Assembly: GCA_008080735.1 (NCBI GenBank)
Contig: SHMW01000003.1
Span: 1-64,000, forward strand
Origin: Promethearchaeota archaeon
Lineage (GTDB): Archaea > Asgardarchaeota > Lokiarchaeia > Sigyniarchaeales > SOKP01
Direction: 5' to 3'
Length of the DNA stretch: 64,000 nt
The stretch's first letter is position 1. Every line of letters begins with the position of its first letter. The notes beneath the pieces were generated by a model. The model saw nothing but the letters and a program-made list of their open reading frames with translations. It did no database searches and was not told where the DNA came from. The translations under genes and the position numbers were made by a program. Positions 26,511 through 41,227 of this stretch are shown piece by piece.

Positions 26511-27296
26511 ATGAAAAAATCAAAAAGAATACATGAACTGGAACCTGAATATGAAAAAGCTCTGAGATCTAAAAATATAGAATGGGTCGACATCGGAGTA
26601 AAAGGGTTAGACTCTTTCATCCCAGGATTGCCAAAAGGAGATGCGATCTTAGTAAGAGGAGAGCCGGGAACTGGTAAAACGATTATGTGCCTACAGTTTA
26701 TGTACAAGGGAATAGAAAATGGAGAAACAGTAGTATATATTACCACAGAAGAGACTCCTCAGACTATTATGCGTACGGGTGCTGAGTTATGGGAAGACTT
26801 CCCCCAACTAGTTGAACAAAAACGCTTCGTGATAATCAACCTTTCTATTGATGCGAGTTATGCTAGTGAATATAGTTTAATAAACAAAGGAGAGGCGATG
26901 GCAATAATTTTGAAAGTTCTCGAAACCCTTCCAGATGTCTCGAGAATTGTAGTTGATTCCTTATCAGCATTAGAACGTAGATTGGCAGATCAATCCGAAT
27001 TTCGAGAAGTATTTATGAAATTGCTACTGGAAACCAAAAAACGAGGAGCTACAACGATTCTTACAGCAGAAGGAATACCTCCAAGACCTGACATTACAGA
27101 ATATCTAGTAGACCACTTAATTTATCTTGATTATCAGAAACATGATGTTATCTGGACCAGAGTATTTGTTTTACGTAAATCCAGAAGTGTTCCTTTAAAA
27201 CCTCAGATATTGAAATTGAACATCGAAACAGAAGGGCTTTCAGTTGAGGAAATTCCGATTTCATTAAAACCCGTGTGGTTTGCAAGTAAATTATGA
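26511..27296 (+). CDS. Single-domain KaiC/RAD55-like RecA-fold ATPase
   Basis: Walker A GEPGTGKT, YITTEE, Walker B VVDSLS and KSR arginine-finger region. Confidence 0.88.
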   Translation: MKKSKRIHELEPEYEKALRSKNIEWVDIGVKGLDSFIPGLPKGDAILVRGEPGTGKTIMCLQFMYKGIENGETVVYITTEETPQTIMRTGAELWEDFPQLVEQKRFVIINLSIDASYASEYSLINKGEAMAIILKVLETLPDVSRIVVDSLSALERRLADQSEFREVFMKLLLETKKRGATTILTAEGIPPRPDITEYLVDHLIYLDYQKHDVIWTRVFVLRKSRSVPLKPQILKLNIETEGLSVEEIPISLKPVWFASKL

Positions 27297-27309
27297 GGTG
27301 TTGTTAAAA

Positions 27310-28614
27310 ATGGGAGACGAAGATTATTTTGGAGCGTTCCAACAAGCATTTCTTGTAGGATGGGCTCCAGTGGCAATCTTTATAATGGCGACTGCTGGTT
27401 TCGGATTTCTTTACGCTGGAATGGTCCGTAAAAAAAATGTGACTCATACGATTATAATGATCAACGTGGGATGGACATTGGCATTTTTTATCTATTTCCT
27501 CATTGGATATCCTTTAGCTTATTATTCAGATCATCCGATTCTGGGTTTACCGCAATGGATACCTACCATTAGCAATCCCTTGCCTCCGATTCTTTCAGAT
27601 GGGGCTTATGGAATTGATGGCAGCCCAAGTGGTTTAGGAGATATGGCTTTATGGTTTAAAATGTCGATGTTTATGATCACATGTCTGGCTATTGTTCCTG
27701 GAGGGACTGCAGAACGAGATAAACTATTAGGCTGGGTCATCGCAGCTGCTGTAATAGCTGCATTCATTTACCCCCTAATCGAGCACTGGGTATGGGGCGG
27801 AGGATGGCTTTCTACGTTAGGCTATATTGACTATGCGGGATCTAGTGTGGTACATCTGACGGGCGGGATGCTGGGTTTAATGGCATCATATGTGATTGGC
27901 CCCCGTATTGGCAAATTCGTTGGAAGTGATAAATCGCCACGTACATTTTTTGGACATAGCATTCCATGGTCAGTTTTAGGAGCTTGGTTGCTAGTTTTTG
28001 GATGGTTTGGATTTAATATTGGTTCAAGTACAGCAGCAGACCCAGAGACCATCAACATCGAATTAGCATGGGTTTCGATTACGACTGCGATGTGTATGGC
28101 TGGAGGATTATTTGGTGCCGCGCTAACCTCGAGAGGCCACGTGTTGACAAGTATGATGGGTTTACTATCTGGAGCAGTTGCTATTTGTTCAGGTGCTCAT
28201 ATCGTACATCCGATCTGGGCGTTTATTATTGGTATAGTAGCGGGTATTATAACGACTTTTGCCTATGGATTCCTAGAGCATGTGCTAAAAGTTGATGATG
28301 CGCTTGCCGTATTTCCTGTACATGGAGCTTGCGGCGTTTGGGGTGTAATAGCGACTGGAATTTTCGGACCAAAAGTTCTATTTGCCCATCCTATCTATGG
28401 ATTTGAACTCAGTGAATGGGGCTCAATTTTTCTCATTCAATTAATTGGAGTTGGTACCATCCTTGCCACCGTGGCAGGATTAGGTTTTGTATTATTTTTC
28501 CTACTAAACAAAGCTAATCTAATGAGAGTTTCAAAAGATCAAGAACTTTTTGGACTGGATATCTCGGTGCATAAAACCTATGCCTATCCCGAAGATATGA
28601 TGGACAAAGACTAA
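27310..28614 (+). CDS. amt: Ammonium transporter (Amt)
   Basis: DYAGSSVVH, WFGFN, DDAL..FPVHG (twin His) and GLD. Likely start ATG 27310, preceded by GAGGTG. Confidence 0.95.
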   Translation: MGDEDYFGAFQQAFLVGWAPVAIFIMATAGFGFLYAGMVRKKNVTHTIIMINVGWTLAFFIYFLIGYPLAYYSDHPILGLPQWIPTISNPLPPILSDGAYGIDGSPSGLGDMALWFKMSMFMITCLAIVPGGTAERDKLLGWVIAAAVIAAFIYPLIEHWVWGGGWLSTLGYIDYAGSSVVHLTGGMLGLMASYVIGPRIGKFVGSDKSPRTFFGHSIPWSVLGAWLLVFGWFGFNIGSSTAADPETINIELAWVSITTAMCMAGGLFGAALTSRGHVLTSMMGLLSGAVAICSGAHIVHPIWAFIIGIVAGIITTFAYGFLEHVLKVDDALAVFPVHGACGVWGVIATGIFGPKVLFAHPIYGFELSEWGSIFLIQLIGVGTILATVAGLGFVLFFLLNKANLMRVSKDQELFGLDISVHKTYAYPEDMMDKD

Positions 28615-28631
28615 TAATTGGAGGAGTTTAT

Positions 28632-28970
28632 ATGAAAAAAATTGAAGCCATAATCAGAAATGAGAAATTGAATTTTGTCAAGAAAGCTTTAGCTGAAGCT
28701 GGATTTTCTGCATTGACAACATATGAAGTGAAAGGACGAGGTAAACAAACTGGTATTATACAAGTATTAAATGGTACAAAAGTATATGCTGATCTTCTCC
28801 CTAAAACCAAAATCGATATAGTGATTCCAACAAAAGATACGGAAAAAGTTATTTCAATAATAATGGAAAACTCGAGGACAGGAAATATTGGTGACGGGAA
28901 GATATTTATCTCAAATGTGGAAAGTGTGGTAAGAGTTCGGGATGGAGAAAGGGGTAAAGAAATCGTTTAA
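28632..28970 (+). CDS. glnK: PII nitrogen regulatory protein
   Basis: MKKIEAIIR, VKGRGKQ, TGNIGDGKIF and RVRDGE; directly downstream of amt with a GGAGG RBS. Confidence 0.93.
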   Translation: MKKIEAIIRNEKLNFVKKALAEAGFSALTTYEVKGRGKQTGIIQVLNGTKVYADLLPKTKIDIVIPTKDTEKVISIIMENSRTGNIGDGKIFISNVESVVRVRDGERGKEIV

Positions 28971-32282: not shown

Positions 32283-33089
32283 TTATTTCGTAAATCCAGT
32301 TATCGCGTTTAGAAATTCCTCTGGATTTTCCATGAATGGAAGATGCCCAGTGTTTTTTATATCCACTAATTTTGAATTAGGGATGAGATTATGGATTGCC
32401 AAAGTAGCTTTTCTGAGATCTTTTTGGTCATGTTCAGAGGAGATCACCAGTGTGGGAGTACTAATTTTATGCAATTCAGGTTCTAAATTTCTTTCATAAA
32501 AATATTTAATCGCACTTAATCCCGCGTGTTTAGCTGTTTTTAGTGAACTTTTTACGAAGAAATCTATTTCTTCCTCATTGGGCGGATTTAAGAAAAATCG
32601 AGGCACCATTTTTCGCATTAATTTTTCTGGATTCTTTCGATACATTCTAATTGTCATTTTCCACACGATCTTGGAAAAAAGATTTCTTGCAAGATACGCT
32701 GAGGTGTTTGAACTAATAAGGTGAGTCAGAGTTTCTGGATATCGAAGAGCATAATCAAGTACGATGTATCCTCCCATACTCTGTCCTAAGATAATGAAAC
32801 CTTTATCCCAATTTAGGTGTTTTGCCAAATTATAGAGATCATTCGAAAAGACTTCGTGTGTATAATCCATCTCGGGTTTTGATGAGTCCCCATGTCCGCG
32901 CAAGTCAGGCACCACGACATCATAGTCGTTTTTAACTAAGTCCGGAGTAAAACTATCCCACAACTCTTTGAAACCCGTCCAGCCATGAACAAGCATCATT
33001 TTCTGTGAATTGCCTTCTCCCCAGCGTTTATATGCAAGATCTAAGTTGCTTTCTATAGAATATTTGTTTACAATACCATTACTACTCAT
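32283..33089 (-). CDS. Alpha/beta hydrolase
   Basis: VHGW, DLRGHGDS, GQSMGG nucleophile elbow and GHL. Confidence 0.92.
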   Translation of the reverse strand: MSSNGIVNKYSIESNLDLAYKRWGEGNSQKMMLVHGWTGFKELWDSFTPDLVKNDYDVVVPDLRGHGDSSKPEMDYTHEVFSNDLYNLAKHLNWDKGFIILGQSMGGYIVLDYALRYPETLTHLISSNTSAYLARNLFSKIVWKMTIRMYRKNPEKLMRKMVPRFFLNPPNEEEIDFFVKSSLKTAKHAGLSAIKYFYERNLEPELHKISTPTLVISSEHDQKDLRKATLAIHNLIPNSKLVDIKNTGHLPFMENPEEFLNAITGFTK

Positions 33090-33215
33090 ATTGATAGCTC
33101 TTATTATAATTTTAATTCTTGAAAATCATAATGAAGGGTTTTCATAATAAGTTATGGGACTCTCTACCCATTCCCAATAAATAATTTTAAATACGAATTA
33201 TGATAAAAAAGTATA

Positions 33216-33302
33216 ATGATCTCATGTAATGCTAATGCGGAAGAGTCTATAGGTTTTGTGTGGGCTATAGCTCTGGCTATCGCCGCTGCAGTAGCATTAT
33301 AA
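33216..33302 (+). CDS. Putative leader peptide (uORF) of ilvE, MISCNANAEESIGFVWAIALAIAAAVAL
   Basis: 28-codon ORF 22 nt downstream of TTTAAATA (33186-33193); last 12 residues are only A/I/L/V; 135 nt upstream of ilvE. Confidence 0.55.
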   Translation: MISCNANAEESIGFVWAIALAIAAAVAL

Positions 33303-33370
33303 AGCAAGATAGCTTTTCTTGACTTCTTTTAGGTATTATATTCTTTTGAAGGGCATCTTGCTTTTGTGGT
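33227..33370 (+). promoter_or_regulatory. Structured 5' leader RNA of ilvE (three-way junction plus long hairpin)
   Basis: Pairings read by eye: 33227-33240/33286-33299, 33242-33252/33265-33274, 33275-77/33282-84 and 33301-33318/33348-33364. Confidence 0.6.
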
Positions 33371-33437
33371 ATTCTTATCTAAATGAGGTCAGTCATAAAG
33401 CGCTTGTGGGAGATCTAAACAAAAAAAGTGAAAAAAT

Positions 33438-34472
33438 ATGCAAGCGACAAGAAAAGAAATAGATTTTAATAATCTTGGGTTTGATTTTATTCAAACTGAT
33501 TGGATGTTCCTTTCCGATTTCAAAAATTGCGAATGGGATGATGGTGAGCTCCTTCCTTACGGATCCATCGAATTATCTCCCTCGGCATGTATATTGAATT
33601 ACGGACAAGGAATTTTTGAAGGAATGAAAGCCTTAAAATCTAAGGATGGAAGAACGACATTATTTCGTCCCTCTGAAAATGCAAAGAGATTTATAAAAAG
33701 CGCAGAACGGTTAGTTATGCCCCCATTTGATGAATCAGAATTTTTAAATGCCGTGAAAAAAGTCGTGCGGGCAAATGAGCACTTCGTTCCTCCATATGAG
33801 ACGGGAGGGTCACTCTATATTCGTCCTTTGATGATCGGAACTGAGCCTTTATTAGGGATAAAGCCTGCTAAAGAGTACAAATTCATCATATTTTGCTCTC
33901 CTGTGGGACCCTATTTTCCAGAAGGATTTAGTAGCATTAATCTTCTTATATCTAAAAAATTCACTCGTGCCAGTCTTGGAGGGACAGGATTTTCAAAAAC
34001 GTGTTCGAATTATGCGGGGACCATGAAACCTGCAACCGAAGCCAAAAAAGACGGATATGACCAAATCCTTTATCTAGATTCAGTGTTTATGAAATACATC
34101 AGTGAAGTGGGATCCGCTAACTTTTGCGCGATAATAAATGATACATTAGTCACTCCGCGTTTAGATGGTACCATTCTTGAAGGTATCACATTGAAGTCTG
34201 TTCTGACCATCGCAGAAAAGAAATTTGGAATTAAGACCGAACAGAGAGATATATCATATCTGGAACTTTTCGAAGATAGTTGTACTGAAACTTTTTGTAC
34301 AGGCACAGCGGCGGTTATTACACCAATCGGTTCAATAACATATCAACACAAAACCAAGACCTTCAATAATCAAGAGCCCGGAGTTATTACCAAAAAATTA
34401 TATGATACTTTGGTTGGTATCCAGAGATTAGATATTGAAGATGAATTCGGATGGGTTCAAATTCTTGAGTAA
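33438..34472 (+). CDS. ilvE: Branched-chain amino acid aminotransferase (fold IV PLP)
   Basis: LNYGQGIFEGMKA, LYIRP, K..SNY (PLP lysine), ILEGIT and GTAAVITP. Confidence 0.93.
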   Translation: MQATRKEIDFNNLGFDFIQTDWMFLSDFKNCEWDDGELLPYGSIELSPSACILNYGQGIFEGMKALKSKDGRTTLFRPSENAKRFIKSAERLVMPPFDESEFLNAVKKVVRANEHFVPPYETGGSLYIRPLMIGTEPLLGIKPAKEYKFIIFCSPVGPYFPEGFSSINLLISKKFTRASLGGTGFSKTCSNYAGTMKPATEAKKDGYDQILYLDSVFMKYISEVGSANFCAIINDTLVTPRLDGTILEGITLKSVLTIAEKKFGIKTEQRDISYLELFEDSCTETFCTGTAAVITPIGSITYQHKTKTFNNQEPGVITKKLYDTLVGIQRLDIEDEFGWVQILE

Positions 34473-35795: not shown

Positions 35796-36629
35796 TTAAA
35801 TTAAATTTCCGCAATAATTCCCGCCAAAGGGTCGCTTAGAGATTGGCTTAATCACTTGAAAGGGTTTATGCCCTATCATTTCATAGGGAATACTGAAAAT
35901 CTCACAAAACTCTTTGATAAAAGGAGTTATTGTCCTTTCTGTTTCTTTTTTTAGCTCATAAACCTTAGCTCCTACACCTAACCTTGTTTCTAAATCCTCA
36001 TCGGTTCTGAGCACTATTTTGCCTCTATGGATACCTGTACCTAATTCTCCTCCGCAGATCGGATATTCACTTTCAACAACCGTTCCATCATCTCGAATGT
36101 CCAATCCCAATACAATGATCAATCCTCCCGCCATATATTCTCCCAAAAAATCTTTTGCGGTTCCTCCGATAAGCACTACGGGAAATTTTTGTTTATATTC
36201 CTTGATATGAATCCCAACTCTGTATCCTACATCTTCTTTAATATAAATTTTCCCCCCTCGCGCCGAAAGCCCTATTACATCTCCACCATCACCGTGTATA
36301 ATCAATGTTCCATCATTCATCGTATTCCCTGCTTGATCTTCACAATTTCCATTCACAACGATTCGTGGACCATCCATAAAAATTCCAAGATCATTTCCAG
36401 GAAGGCCGTTAATTTCAAGTTTTAAGTCTCCTTGTAGGGACGCACCGATGAATCGTTGACCGCACACATCATTTAACACAACTTTTGAATACCCATTTCT
36501 AAGTGCACCATGAATTTTTTCGTTTAAATCTTTATAATTGAGAGGCCGACCGTTTGGAGCAGCATCAATCTGAATCGATCCTTTCTTTTTCATTTCATAT
36601 TCTAATTTCTGATTTTTGTTTTCAATCAT
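35796..36629 (-). CDS. Glutamate synthase GXGXG (domain 3) subunit
   Basis: GQRFIG, GNDLG.FMDG, AGNTM..G and FLGEYMAGG beta-helix repeats. Confidence 0.9.
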   Translation of the reverse strand: MIENKNQKLEYEMKKKGSIQIDAAPNGRPLNYKDLNEKIHGALRNGYSKVVLNDVCGQRFIGASLQGDLKLEINGLPGNDLGIFMDGPRIVVNGNCEDQAGNTMNDGTLIIHGDGGDVIGLSARGGKIYIKEDVGYRVGIHIKEYKQKFPVVLIGGTAKDFLGEYMAGGLIIVLGLDIRDDGTVVESEYPICGGELGTGIHRGKIVLRTDEDLETRLGVGAKVYELKKETERTITPFIKEFCEIFSIPYEMIGHKPFQVIKPISKRPFGGNYCGNLI

Positions 36630-36647
36630 ATTTTGTTCTCCATCTTT

Positions 36648-38168
36648 TTATTCGCCCGCATGTTTTACACCCAATATATCGGCGATTTTAGGGTTTGGTC
36701 CTATATAACGCAACCGATCTCGATTTGATCGGAGTGATTCCACCGAATCAATTCCCATCGCTCCTAAAACTTCTTTCAATTCCTCATTCCAGCTATGAAA
36801 CAAGTTAATTATACGATTTCGAGCGACATCTATATCTAATCGCTTTACTAAATATTCTTGTTGAGTTGCTATCCCCCACGAGCAGAGCCCTCTGAAGCAT
36901 TGCTGACAGACCCTACATCCCATCGCAATTAACACGGGCATACTACACATTCCAACATCTGCCCCCAAGGCGATTGCTTTAATTAAATCCGCAGAATATC
37001 GGATAGACCCGCCCGCAACTAATGTAACTTCATCCCGAAGGTTTTCCTCACGGAGTCGCGAATCAACCGCGGCGATCGCTAATTCAATCGGTATTCCTGC
37101 ATGATCTCTAATAATTCTGGGTGCCGCGCCTGTACCACCCCGAAATCCGTCGATAGTCAGAAAATCTGCACCGCCCCTGACAATACCAACAGCGATAGGT
37201 GCTGAATTGTGAACTGCGGCGATTTTGACACCTATAGGAACTTTATAACGTGTTGCCTCTTTTAACGCTGAAATTAACTGTGCGAGATCTTCGATGGAGT
37301 AAATATCATGATGAGGATAGGGTGAAAGTGCGTCAGATCCTTTAGGTATCATCCTCGTCTCTGAGATAAGAGAGTTTACCTTTTCTCCCGGCAGATGGCC
37401 TCCGTGTCCTGGCTTAGCTCCTTGCCCAATTTTAATTTCGATGCCAGCAGCATTTTGTAAATAATTAATATCGACTCCGAAACGTCCAGAAGCAATCTCG
37501 GTGATGATATTAGGGCCATATTCGTAAAAGTCTTTATGCAGACCTCCTTCACCTGAACCAGCTAATATCTTGAGTTCTTTTACTGCCTGATAAATAGCCA
37601 TGCAAGCATTATAGCTGATAGATCCTAAACTCATATGTCCGACCATAATCGGGGAATCAATTTCAAAATTAGGCATAAATTCAGTTTTCAGTGAAATCTC
37701 GTTCGGATTTTCAGCATTTTCTGAAAACACAATTTGTTTAGGTTTTCTACCAAAAAACACTTTCGTTTCAATTGTCTCTCGTAGAGGATCGATACTCGGA
37801 TTAGTAACTTGACATGCATCAAGAAGTAAATCGTCAAATATCGTTCTTATTGGGCGATCATTTCCCGTCGCAGAGAGTAAAACTCCTCCATCACCTGACT
37901 GAGACCAGATTACGTTCCTTATTCTTCGAGTATAGTTTCCATGGGGTGGTAGATATGAGTCGTTTTTCTCAATTCTTATAGCCCCCGCTGGACACATCGC
38001 GACGCATCTTTGACAAGCAACGCATTTCGGATCGTCAGATACGATACGTTCCCCATTGAAAGATAAAGCCTCATAACTACAGTGATTCGTGCACCTTTTG
38101 CATTTTTTACATAGCTCTCTATCCACTTTCACATGGAAATATGAGGGAACGCTGTGTTGTAAAGACAT
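36648..38168 (-). CDS. Glutamate synthase FMN-binding subunit with N-terminal 2x[4Fe-4S] domain
   Basis: Two CxxCxxCxxxC motifs, MSLGS, SGEGG, EIKIGQGAKPG.GGHLPG.KV and a C-terminal Cys cluster (CRVCQQCFRGLC). Confidence 0.93.
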   Translation of the reverse strand: MSLQHSVPSYFHVKVDRELCKKCKRCTNHCSYEALSFNGERIVSDDPKCVACQRCVAMCPAGAIRIEKNDSYLPPHGNYTRRIRNVIWSQSGDGGVLLSATGNDRPIRTIFDDLLLDACQVTNPSIDPLRETIETKVFFGRKPKQIVFSENAENPNEISLKTEFMPNFEIDSPIMVGHMSLGSISYNACMAIYQAVKELKILAGSGEGGLHKDFYEYGPNIITEIASGRFGVDINYLQNAAGIEIKIGQGAKPGHGGHLPGEKVNSLISETRMIPKGSDALSPYPHHDIYSIEDLAQLISALKEATRYKVPIGVKIAAVHNSAPIAVGIVRGGADFLTIDGFRGGTGAAPRIIRDHAGIPIELAIAAVDSRLREENLRDEVTLVAGGSIRYSADLIKAIALGADVGMCSMPVLIAMGCRVCQQCFRGLCSWGIATQQEYLVKRLDIDVARNRIINLFHSWNEELKEVLGAMGIDSVESLRSNRDRLRYIGPNPKIADILGVKHAGE

Positions 38169-38317
38169 TTTTTACTTTTTTACTCTTAAATGATGGTTAT
38201 AATATATTTATTATTAAGTATATATATTATTTATGATTATCTTATATGAAATATAGTCTAGATATATCAGATATATTCTATAATAATAAAGAATTTGGGT
38301 TTTATCATTTGATATGC

Positions 38318-38354
38318 GAGAAAACTCACTCCTTTTAAGGGGTGCGTAATTCTC
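38318..38354. repeat. Isolated GC-richer hairpin resembling an IS200/IS605-type end
   Basis: GAGAA-AACT-CACTCCTT-TT-AAGGGGTG-CGTAA-TTCTC. Confidence 0.3.
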
Positions 38355-38683
38355 TTTTAGTCACGAGTATTTTCTAAGGATTTTTAGTTAGATATATGAA
38401 TTTTTTCCAATATCTTAAATTAATTTCCTTTAAACATGAAATATTTTAGGATTTGGAGCCGATCAACATAGGATTATTAAAATGAATAAGGAGTTGTGCT
38501 CATTTAAAATTTATGTTAGATGCTAATTTCGTAAATTCTTTTAGAAAGTTTTTTAAAGATGGATTCTCCAGTTTTACATTCTTTAGATATGCATTAGATA
38601 ATAGTTTAAAGGCAGCTTGAATAGTATGAATTGAAATCATAAAAATATCTGAACAAAGCTAACTCCACCAATAAAAGATTTTT

Positions 38684-39880
38684 TCAACTTCGAATTGCTC
38701 CCTCGACTTTGAGATTAATTTTTTCGAAAGGTTTTTCTAAACCGTCTCTCAGTATTCCCTCTCCTATCCTTGCGACTATCGCAGTACCGCTCTTTGGGTG
38801 CCATACATTCTTAAAATTATATTCCTCGATTAGTTTTAGGCGCTTAAATGAAGCTTCCTCACTGCTTAAAAAAAGCGAATCATCATTCTCAGAAATAGCT
38901 GCAACTAATGGGCGTAATTTTTTTCTATCTGAGAGCCCTACCAAAGTTGGTTTTGGATCGGTCAGACCAACCACTATCGAAAATGGTCCATTGAGCATCG
39001 CAGACCTATATGTTGCACGGACATTTTTCAGAGCTATTTGATAATTTTGTTCCATTGTTTCGATATTACTAAATAATGGCGGAGCCAATGCCATGGTCGC
39101 AATTGGAACGGGCATTTTATGTTTACGGATTAATAGATCAAATAAATAGGCGATTACTTCAGTGTCGGTAAATAGAGTACATTTATATCCAAATGATTCT
39201 AAATACCTCATATTTGTTCCATAAGAAGTTATTTCCCCGTTATGTACAACGCTTGTGCCTAATAAATTAAAAGGATGCGCGCCCCCCCACCATCCTGGAG
39301 TATTCGTAGGAAATCGGGAATGAGCTAACCACATATACGCCTTATAATCTTTAATTTTGTAAAAATCGGCTATTTCGTGGGACCATCCATTTCCTTTAAA
39401 CACTCCCATATTTTTACCGGAGGATATAACAAACACACCCTTGAACTTTTCATTTATATGCATAACCAATTGAACAACTTGCTCATCTTCTGAGATGCTT
39501 TTTTTTTTTTTAGGTTCATAAAAAACTCTCCAGGTAATAGGAGGATTATCTATATTATGCGGTGCTAAGGTTGGGATTGGTTCTGATTGAATAATGTATC
39601 CCACTTCATCCAAATAGTGCAATAATTTCTCCTTACATTCTTCGGTATCTATGAGAAAATGAAGAGCATAATAATCTTTATAATTGGGATATATTCCATA
39701 GCCCGCAAATCCCGCGCCTAATCCATTTTCTCTTTCGCTTAAAATACACAACATATCGATGATTTGGTCACCACTATCACGTTTTCCATCAATATTAATA
39801 TATCCAGAGATTCCACAACCATCAAACACACGTTGATTGCGAAATTTCTCGGGTAAACTTGTATAATTATTCCAATTCAT
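38684..39880 (-). CDS. Class II glutamine amidotransferase subunit of glutamate synthase (domain 1)
   Basis: GCGISG, RENGLG.G, HSRFPTNT, AHPF, HNGEI, DTEV and DR.KLRP. Confidence 0.9.
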   Translation of the reverse strand: MNWNNYTSLPEKFRNQRVFDGCGISGYINIDGKRDSGDQIIDMLCILSERENGLGAGFAGYGIYPNYKDYYALHFLIDTEECKEKLLHYLDEVGYIIQSEPIPTLAPHNIDNPPITWRVFYEPKKKKSISEDEQVVQLVMHINEKFKGVFVISSGKNMGVFKGNGWSHEIADFYKIKDYKAYMWLAHSRFPTNTPGWWGGAHPFNLLGTSVVHNGEITSYGTNMRYLESFGYKCTLFTDTEVIAYLFDLLIRKHKMPVPIATMALAPPLFSNIETMEQNYQIALKNVRATYRSAMLNGPFSIVVGLTDPKPTLVGLSDRKKLRPLVAAISENDDSLFLSSEEASFKRLKLIEEYNFKNVWHPKSGTAIVARIGEGILRDGLEKPFEKINLKVEGAIRS

Positions 39881-39886
39881 TTTTTT

Positions 39887-41227
39887 TCAGTACGGTTCTC
39901 TAACTTTTTTTTCTAATTTATTTATTAATATTTTTAAATCTTCTAATTCGGGTTTCTTAGATTTTAATCCTACCCTTTTTCGTGCGGATTTTGAAAACAT
40001 TGCCACGGTTCCCATTTTTTTAAATGCTTCTATCTCTTGTGAGAATCCATCAGTACTATTCCCCTTATTTTGGGCCAAATTACGTAGAGTAGTAAAAATT
40101 TCCACCAACCCAACCCGCATCGGACATAATTCATAACACACATAGCAATCGAGACATAGCCATATGGACGAGTCTGTAAGCACTTGCTCTAATCGGCCAT
40201 TTAAGATTTTTTTAACAATTTCTTGCGGATTAAATGTCTGGGGCATATATTTTGCGACAGGACAATCGCTGTTACATGCGCCACATGAGTAACATTCTTT
40301 CAAGAATTCCACATCAAAATATTTTTTAATTTCTTTGTTCTTTTCGTGAATTGAATCGATTTTAGCAAATATTTTCTCTACTGGAGTTCGATGGTATTTC
40401 TTGATAATGTCTCTGATATCAATCCCTAATGCAATACAGAGCAATTCAGAATAGTAAAATACAGGAATATCGAATTCATAGTCTAATCTTTTCAGCTCTC
40501 TTTGAAGATGATCGAACTGCATAAAACATTGAGGACACCCCACCACGATCGCATCTGCGCCTACTTCCTTTATGCTTTCTAGCTTTGAATGGATCATTTC
40601 TAATCCCGCATCAGAATTCCCCGCCCTCTCTAAACTTCCTCCGCAACAGTCCATTTTGTGGATATAATCAACACTTTTTGCTCCTAAATCTTCGATTAGC
40701 TTGTCAAAAATATGCGGTTCCATCGGATCGTCCATTTGTATCTTATTACTTGGTCGGAGAAAATGACACCCATAATGAACCGCAACTTTTAGAGATGTTA
40801 AGGGATATTTTATCTTTTCTTTAATGGTATCGCTTCCTAACTGATGAAAAAATTCAACGAGGTGGAATACATCGCTGTCTCCTTCAACTTTTAGGTTTAT
40901 TTCACTCAAATGGTTATTCATTTTTTCACGAAAATGGCTATCCACTCTGAGTTCACTCCGAATTCCTTTTAATGTCTCAAAACACCCGTTACAAGGAGTT
41001 AAAATATCTTTTTCTTGGGTTTCAGCTAATGCAAGATTTCTTGATGCGGTGATGGAATATAAGACGGAATCCGTATTTTTAATTCCATTTGGTTCTGGAC
41101 AACATGAAAATTTCTCATTCTCCCAATAATTAATCTCAAAATGCTCTAAAGCTTTTTTCACTGATACTTCGATGAAGGGTAATCGATAACTAATCATGCA
41201 ACCTGGGAAAAGTACTATATCATCCAT
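39887..41227 (-). CDS. Heterodisulfide reductase HdrB-HdrC fusion protein
   Basis: Two CCG-type domains (GC..CCP..CNGC; YGCH..CCGG..CPQC) followed by two CxxCxxCxxxCP motifs. Confidence 0.88.
   Translation of the reverse strand: MDDIVLFPGCMISYRLPFIEVSVKKALEHFEINYWENEKFSCCPEPNGIKNTDSVLYSITASRNLALAETQEKDILTPCNGCFETLKGIRSELRVDSHFREKMNNHLSEINLKVEGDSDVFHLVEFFHQLGSDTIKEKIKYPLTSLKVAVHYGCHFLRPSNKIQMDDPMEPHIFDKLIEDLGAKSVDYIHKMDCCGGSLERAGNSDAGLEMIHSKLESIKEVGADAIVVGCPQCFMQFDHLQRELKRLDYEFDIPVFYYSELLCIALGIDIRDIIKKYHRTPVEKIFAKIDSIHEKNKEIKKYFDVEFLKECYSCGACNSDCPVAKYMPQTFNPQEIVKKILNGRLEQVLTDSSIWLCLDCYVCYELCPMRVGLVEIFTTLRNLAQNKGNSTDGFSQEIEAFKKMGTVAMFSKSARKRVGLKSKKPELEDLKILINKLEKKVREPY

Follow-up and report, generated by a model that had tools for sequence, protein, structure and literature searches.

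A candidate ribosome-sensed leader upstream of an ilvE paralogue in a Promethearchaeota archaeon

Can a ribosome that translates a short leader ORF govern the gene downstream of it in an archaeon? Leader-peptide attenuation is textbook knowledge for bacteria. To our knowledge, archaea have no Rho, and hairpin terminators are mostly absent from them; a working case would therefore show the ribosome gating archaeal termination, processing or initiation. A literature search on attenuation in archaea revealed no description of such attenuators; uORFs are mentioned in archaeal Ribo-seq papers, without a mechanism. The question is raised by a short ORF upstream of an ilvE gene in the window analysed here, a stretch of 64,000 nt (contig SHMW01000003.1, assembly GCA_008080735.1) from a Promethearchaeota archaeon. 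Its nearest relatives with a name are Promethearchaeota (Lokiarchaeota) genomes. Features of the locus, and of other leaders in the same genome, are listed in Table 1.

Table 1. Coordinates of the leader, of the downstream gene and of further leader ORFs in the source genome (G000). Positions are those of the window unless a contig is named.
Feature	Position	Strand	Remarks
TATA box TTTAAATA	33186..33193	+	seen in the sequence
Leader ORF, 28 codons	33216..33302	+	ATG 33216, stop 33300-33302; homologues 26–37 codons
S1, start-codon segment	33217..33225	+	partner S6 (fold A) or S8 (fold B)
P2, ORF-closing helix	33227..33299	+	33227-33234 : 33292-33299; inner stems variable
Codon run, putatively regulatory	33264..33299	+	last 12 codons: 7 Ala, 2 Ile, 2 Leu, 1 Val
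Post-stop hairpin S4:S5	33301..33364	+	S4 33301-33318, S5 33348-33364; pyrimidine/U-tract loop 33319-33347
S6, switch segment	33383..33392	+	partner S1 (fold A) or loop 33319-33326 (fold B)
S7	33397..33407	+	in fold B pairs with S4, displacing S5
S8, second anti-start box copy	33410..33415	+	takes S1 in fold B
Weak Shine-Dalgarno remnant GTGA	33428..33431	+	in A-rich stretch; seen in the sequence
ilvE paralogue, bacterial-type branched-chain aminotransferase	33438..34472	+	344 aa; TIGR01123 348 bits vs cut-off 250
Trp leader ORF before trpB2	G000 C74:18404-18460		
Leu leader ORF before leuA	G000 C4:16918-16808		
Ile leader ORF before cimA	G000 C12:46911-46855		
Phe leader ORF before pheS	G000 C55:4846-4739		

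The leader ORF and its conservation at ilvE

A preliminary description of this DNA was accurate in every coordinate and count given for the TATA box, the ATG, the 28 codons, the residues (9 Ala, 4 Ile, 2 Leu and 2 Val in the whole ORF, with exclusively A/I/L/V in the last 12 codons) and the 135 nt between the uORF stop and the ilvE ATG. It also rightly called the ORF GC-rich: the GC content is 43.7% vs 22.4% in the upstream and 32.6% in the downstream flank. The leader is 220 nt long. As a TATA-like box lies 28–31 nt 5' of the ATG in 16 of 20 ilvE leaders, we infer a leaderless transcript whose predicted start site coincides with the uORF ATG or lies slightly 5' of it. The 126-bp intergenic promoter region is shared with a divergent gene for an alpha/beta hydrolase (32283-33089, minus strand). 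Compared with 1,600 short intergenic ORFs of the genome located 30–300 nt 5' of a same-strand gene, the uORF has the strongest bias towards a single residue (Ala at 7 of the last 12 codons, p 3.7e-9); runs of Trp 5' of trpB2 and of Leu 5' of leuA come second and third.

Within this Promethearchaeota family, the leader is present in all 18 members of one clade of ilvE paralogues, compared with none of 92 other ilvE genes. A quick tree built from 113 proteins supports this clade with an SH-aLRT value of 99. The source genome has two ilvE copies, the second of which lacks a leader, and none was detected 5' of its ilvC, two ilvD-like genes, valS, leuS and ald. Seven of eight metagenome pattern matches proved to be such leaders; where the contig extended far enough in the 3' direction, ilvE was the next gene, apart from one case with an unrelated gene. 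A close tidal-flat relative has 62 differences in 801 bp; among the differences listed, one falls within 33180-33339, and three affect stems, all preserving pairing. ilvE-type leaders were also seen at four other places: 5' of an ABC transporter gene, with matched S1 and S8 changes; 5' of a gene for a PLP decarboxylase; 5' of an RpiR-like gene, on a possibly chimeric contig; and as a truncated copy without a gene. At five loci a tRNA-like gene on the opposite strand was noticed 5' of the leaderless ilvE paralogue, with an apparent insert in some (by eye).

Comparison of the homologues shows that selection maintains both the reading frame of the candidate leader ORF and its Ala run. Every homologue has an uninterrupted frame of 26–37 codons, bounded by start and stop motifs that are conserved, while a shuffled ORF of the same make-up remains open in only 7–20% of cases. 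Indels are always multiples of three. In 17 of the 18 ilvE leaders the last 12 codons encode Ala more often than any other residue, all four Ala codons are in use, and GC dinucleotides occur at codon positions 1–2 in 113 of 114 instances. The synonymous codon usage and the phase of GC argue for selection on the codons of the run, not on a GC-rich RNA. The proposal that relatives would share the uORF and its structure was thus borne out, with an in-frame uORF in all clade members and covarying helices (see below); of the expected A/I/L/V-rich character the rich run was kept, and the dominant codon is Ala instead of a branched-chain codon.

The alanine-dominated run is unusual. Its Val/Ile/Leu part matches ilvE; the dominant Ala is not a textbook product of the enzyme. 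Residues K187, Y192 and R84 and the GTA motif are kept in the leader-associated IlvE. Two changes near the cofactor site, F230C and R252L, are specific for the leader clade, and both positions presumably belong to the class IV aminotransferase signature. The Arg following the GIT motif is replaced by Leu, Val or Ile in 18 of 18 clade members vs Arg in 95 of 95 others, and the clade has longer branches in the quick tree. Residues of the side-chain pocket revealed no difference between leader-clade and leaderless IlvE. Hauser and Hatfield are said to have described, in 1984, Ala/Thr control of E. coli ilvB. The enzyme may, as a less well supported suggestion, link alanine/pyruvate with the branched-chain amino acids, which would account for the mixed Ala/Val/Ile/Leu run. 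Characterized archaeal branched-chain aminotransferases show weak use of pyruvate (PMC6353796). An alanine dehydrogenase is also encoded in the source genome, without such a leader. By eye from translations, ilvE lies in a nitrogen-assimilation neighbourhood (27280-28970 and 35796-41227) with amtB-glnK-like genes (ammonium transporter, PII), a split glutamate synthase cluster and a heterodisulfide-reductase-like gene.

Two exclusive RNA folds

The leader region folds with z = −4.1, none of 200 shuffled sequences being as good. Covariation shows that five helices make up two exclusive folds, of which fold A is predicted to expose a U-tract and fold B to bury it. Fold A (S1:S6 and S4:S5) is 96.5% paired over the homologues with four two-sided pairs, a level reached by none of 500 shuffles; S1:S6 by itself is 97% paired with three two-sided pairs. 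Fold B (S1:S8, S4:S7 and loop:S6) is 80% paired with nine two-sided pairs, and S1:S8 88% paired. In all ilvE leaders examined, S8 is located 25–32 nt 3' of S6.

Pairing specificity was assessed by comparing duplexes of fixed windows with those obtained by permuting partners within the ilvE class. P2 (−12.5 kcal/mol with its own vs −9.5 with permuted partners, p < 0.001), loop:S6 (−11.0 vs −9.1, p 0.001), S1:S6 (−10.6 vs −8.6, p 0.001), S4:S7 (p 0.017) and S4:S5 are each better with their own partner, at p 0.017 or lower. As relatives are not independent and kinship inflates the significance, these values were interpreted alongside two negative-control pairings, neither of which revealed covariation in the permutation test; one of the two is the competition proposed in the preliminary description.

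The stems named in the preliminary description do occur in predicted folds of this sequence, its inner three-way junction being different in every homologue. This proposed competition, between the second stem and the 3' strand of the first, does not covary (p 0.10 in ilvE leaders, 0.84 overall); the competing strands are instead segments at 33383-33415. Its suggestion to check Rfam for a T-box or other known motifs led to no curated family matching the leader: the scan returned chance matches only, the best at E 3.1, and all of them fell far short of the gathering scores.

Of 130 family leaders, 126 have one or more U4 tracts 10–48 nt past the stop codon (starting at a median of 22 nt past it), compared with 31 of 130 having one inside the ORF. 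Apart from this tract, few unpaired bases are conserved. A GC-rich hairpin followed by a U-run, as in an intrinsic terminator, was not found: the conserved U-tract lies within the hairpin loop, and the region 3' of S5 contains no conserved U-run. When folding of the growing chain was modelled, fold A formed right after synthesis of S6 (S1:S6 0.85), giving way to fold B after a further 25 nt. In the folding model, fold B comes earlier when a ribosome occupies the last codon or the start. Under equilibrium folding, a ribosome stalled 4–8 codons before the stop did not cause a switch, so a simple stall model needs queuing of ribosomes or a kinetic effect.

A leader family with exchanged codon runs

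Comparison of the family leaders shows that one predicted RNA frame is reused with other codon runs before other genes. A broader search model gave matches in 126 of 135 family genomes at about 250 places. Model R2 relies on sequence only. Held-out family matches contained an ATG ORF in 79 of 80 cases and a TTG ORF in the remaining one. Outside the family, the broad model yielded seven weak matches, six by chance and one corresponding to a valS leader, and the ilvE-type model had no real match when some 125 further genomes of the phylum were searched, its single match lying within a coding gene. A loose DNA pattern was rejected as a search tool, as outside true loci its match rate equalled that of the reversed control. 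A BLASTN search of the source genome with the leader as query detected no copy; a second copy of the module, on contig C50 (G000:C50:27622-27834), was found only with the RNA model. It has a six-Val run and precedes an unannotated 45-aa protein with an LDxxxFxxPAE-like motif, for which neither Pfam (no match) nor a protein atlas (hypothetical clusters only) offers an assignment; related proteins of 52 and 68 aa are common targets of the module.

The dominant residue varies with the target. Leu is the top residue in all 52 leuS leaders, 42 of which had been held out from the model, and these leaders precede both bacterial- and archaeal-type LeuRS genes. Val leads in four of four leaders before acyl-CoA dehydrogenase/ETF genes, and Ile in 14 of 17 before a FrhB-TrmB fusion. 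In this FrhB-like protein a ferredoxin is located at the N-terminus and a TrmB-type domain at the C-terminus. Val or Leu runs precede unknown small proteins. Val and Leu codons form P2, and because of this pairing a Val/Leu tail is the default of the family. Leu also tops 24 of 43 small-protein leaders, which weakens the leuS match. The codon runs may serve as hints to function for the unknown targets, namely three small-protein families and the FrhB-TrmB fusion. In a subgroup of 11 leaders the RNA frame is kept without a clear run; the ORF is shifted, with its stop inside S4, and the gene on the 3' side encodes an acidic protein of 50–60 aa.

Further leaders differ in architecture. In one genus of a sister family, Val is the top residue in four of four valS leaders, each from another genome and with its own Shine-Dalgarno sequence (SD). 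One genome has Leu/Val leaders with a simple hairpin before an ORF resembling the gamma subunit of 2-oxoacid:ferredoxin oxidoreductase and before a methylmalonyl-CoA-mutase-like gene; together with acyl-CoA dehydrogenase/ETF, these targets suggest a branched-chain acid route. The source genome itself has Trp-trpB2, Leu-leuA, Ile-cimA and Phe-pheS leaders (genes named from translations), each with its own RNA architecture. The organism evidently uses cognate-codon leaders, so that the most plausible reading of the ilvE leader is a sensor of charged tRNA-Ala that also receives branched-chain input. The leader scan also brought up a 39-aa ORF (G000:C75:5454, minus strand) with three CKCGGGC-like modules, which is metallothionein-like.

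Proposed mechanism, alternatives and known systems

From these comparisons we consider it probable that the leader is a ribosome-sensed attenuator which gauges charged tRNA-Ala, and secondarily Val/Ile/Leu charging, and thereby sets the expression of the extra ilvE copy. The preliminary idea of a leader peptide combined with an amino-acid-sensing RNA switch is strongly supported in this respect by conservation, covariation and target-linked runs. When amino acids are plentiful, the ribosome would finish the ORF and depart, fold A (S1:S6, P2, S4:S5) would expose the U-tract loop, and the transcript would be cut or terminated, most likely by aCPSF1/FttA. Upon starvation, ribosomes would dwell on the run and reach over S4, or queue onto the start, blocking P2, S4 or S1; fold B could then form, S6 pairing to the U-loop and S7 to S4, so that the tract would be buried and ilvE expressed. 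This direction, starved being the on state, is assumed from leuS, and the catabolic-looking targets would fit it less clearly.

aCPSF1 is encoded in the genome (TIGR03675 over cut-off). It recognizes U-tracts, as does the Lokiarchaeota orthologue (PMC8716108). Cleavage by FttA has been proposed to occur 15–25 nt from the growing 3' end (PMC11616081). At the loop U-tract this would precede the synthesis of S6, which poses a timing problem for the cleavage step. Readthrough control, as originally suggested, would be one of three possible outputs, namely termination via aCPSF1, translation or decay. Given a ribosome sensor, a rough split assigns one half to termination or cleavage, one quarter to initiation and one quarter to decay or a mixed output.

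Among the alternatives, a translational attenuator in which the leader sequesters the downstream SD fares best, and is still unlikely here. This is the mode of the mycobacterial leaderless poly-Cys attenuators (10.1101/834739). Within the family, loop:SD duplexes are strong before bacterial-type leuS (−9 to −16 kcal/mol) and S7:SD pairing is specific in the small-protein class, so that occlusion may apply to these members. It is unsupported for ilvE: S7:SD gave p 0.80 in the ilvE leaders, loop:SD amounts to −5.4 in this copy and is weaker than with foreign SDs, SD accessibility is nearly equal in the two folds (0.61 vs 0.68), and no specific pairing partner was found for the SD remnant.

We regard it as improbable that general ribosome speed or load, or arrest of a hydrophobic nascent peptide at the stop, is sensed in place of cognate tRNA. 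Such sensing would agree with the restriction of all runs in this RNA family to A/V/I/L, with a folding model that flips only with the ribosome at stop or start, with the subgroup that has no run and with the catabolic look of several targets (acyl-CoA dehydrogenase/ETF, 2-oxoacid oxidoreductase, mutase). However, the residue switches cognately with the target for leuS and valS, and arrest is difficult to reconcile with leader peptides that share 24–46% identity and whose runs are interrupted by D, K, R, E or P.

A riboswitch, a T-box-like element or a protein-binding RNA with an incidental ORF has very little probability, although the large conserved two-state structure would suit it and codon mutants of the actinomycete leuA and ilvB leaders did not behave as classical attenuation predicts (PMC1262725); the missing Rfam match, the indels in threes, the nearly strict codon phase of GC dinucleotides and the scarcity of conserved unpaired bases apart from the U-tract speak against it. 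Least probable of all is a functional small membrane peptide with RNA structure as a secondary matter, since in spite of the 17 hydrophobic C-terminal residues of this copy only Met1 is invariant, the length varies between 26 and 37 codons, charged residues interrupt the run in homologues, the N-terminal residues are set by RNA pairing and there is no Pfam or NCBIfam match.

Returning to the ribosome-sensed attenuator, we offer a wider reading as a tentative suggestion, itself rather doubtful: this Asgard family could run a programmable RNA regulon, with one module in about 250 copies and 126 genomes that is retuned by its codon run (Ala, Leu, Val, Ile) and couples ribosome dwell to cleavage by aCPSF1, which is CPSF73-like. 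This copy would then be a dedicated alanine gauge for an ilvE paralogue with pyruvate/alanine activity.

In E. coli tnaC/Rho-dependent attenuation (mentioned in PMC1262725), a ribosome near the leader stop denies the termination factor its RNA site, as would be the case in our leader. Here the factor would be aCPSF1/FttA; in contrast to tnaC there is no conserved arrest peptide, and sensing would be by the codon run. The enterobacterial and coryneform ilv/leu attenuators (ilvL, ivbL, leuL; Corynebacterium glutamicum ilvBNC, PMC11857589) resemble our leader in having a short upstream ORF with a pathway codon run and alternative folds before a branched-chain gene. They differ in that the archaeal leader has a TATA promoter, is predicted to be leaderless, places its U-tract in a hairpin loop, uses the start codon as a switch strand, is dominated by Ala and has no Rfam match; without a GC hairpin and U-run it also lacks the intrinsic terminator that defines a classical attenuator of the trpL/ilvL/leuL type. 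Attenuators of aminoacyl-tRNA synthetase genes (E. coli pheST; predicted for Streptomyces leuS and trpS, PMC1262725) are similar to the family in that it puts a Leu run before leuS, whereas the family reuses one RNA module over at least six target classes and has no classical terminator.

The closest match in layout is provided by the leaderless mycobacterial poly-Cys sORFs of the 'ribulon' (10.1101/834739), which share the short ORF (leaderless by prediction in our case), the run near the stop and the occurrence at several operons. Those loci are of independent origin, and the one tested acts by SD occlusion, whereas the Asgard loci are homologous copies, differ in the sensed residue and, for ilvE, give no support to SD occlusion. 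A working switch of this kind would bear on transcription–translation coupling and on the question of FttA exclusion (PMC11616081). Its setting is the lineage nearest to eukaryotes, and eukaryotic uORF control is a possible relative. The new elements are a run dominated by Ala, its association with just one of the ilvE paralogues, and the reuse of one RNA module with exchanged codons.
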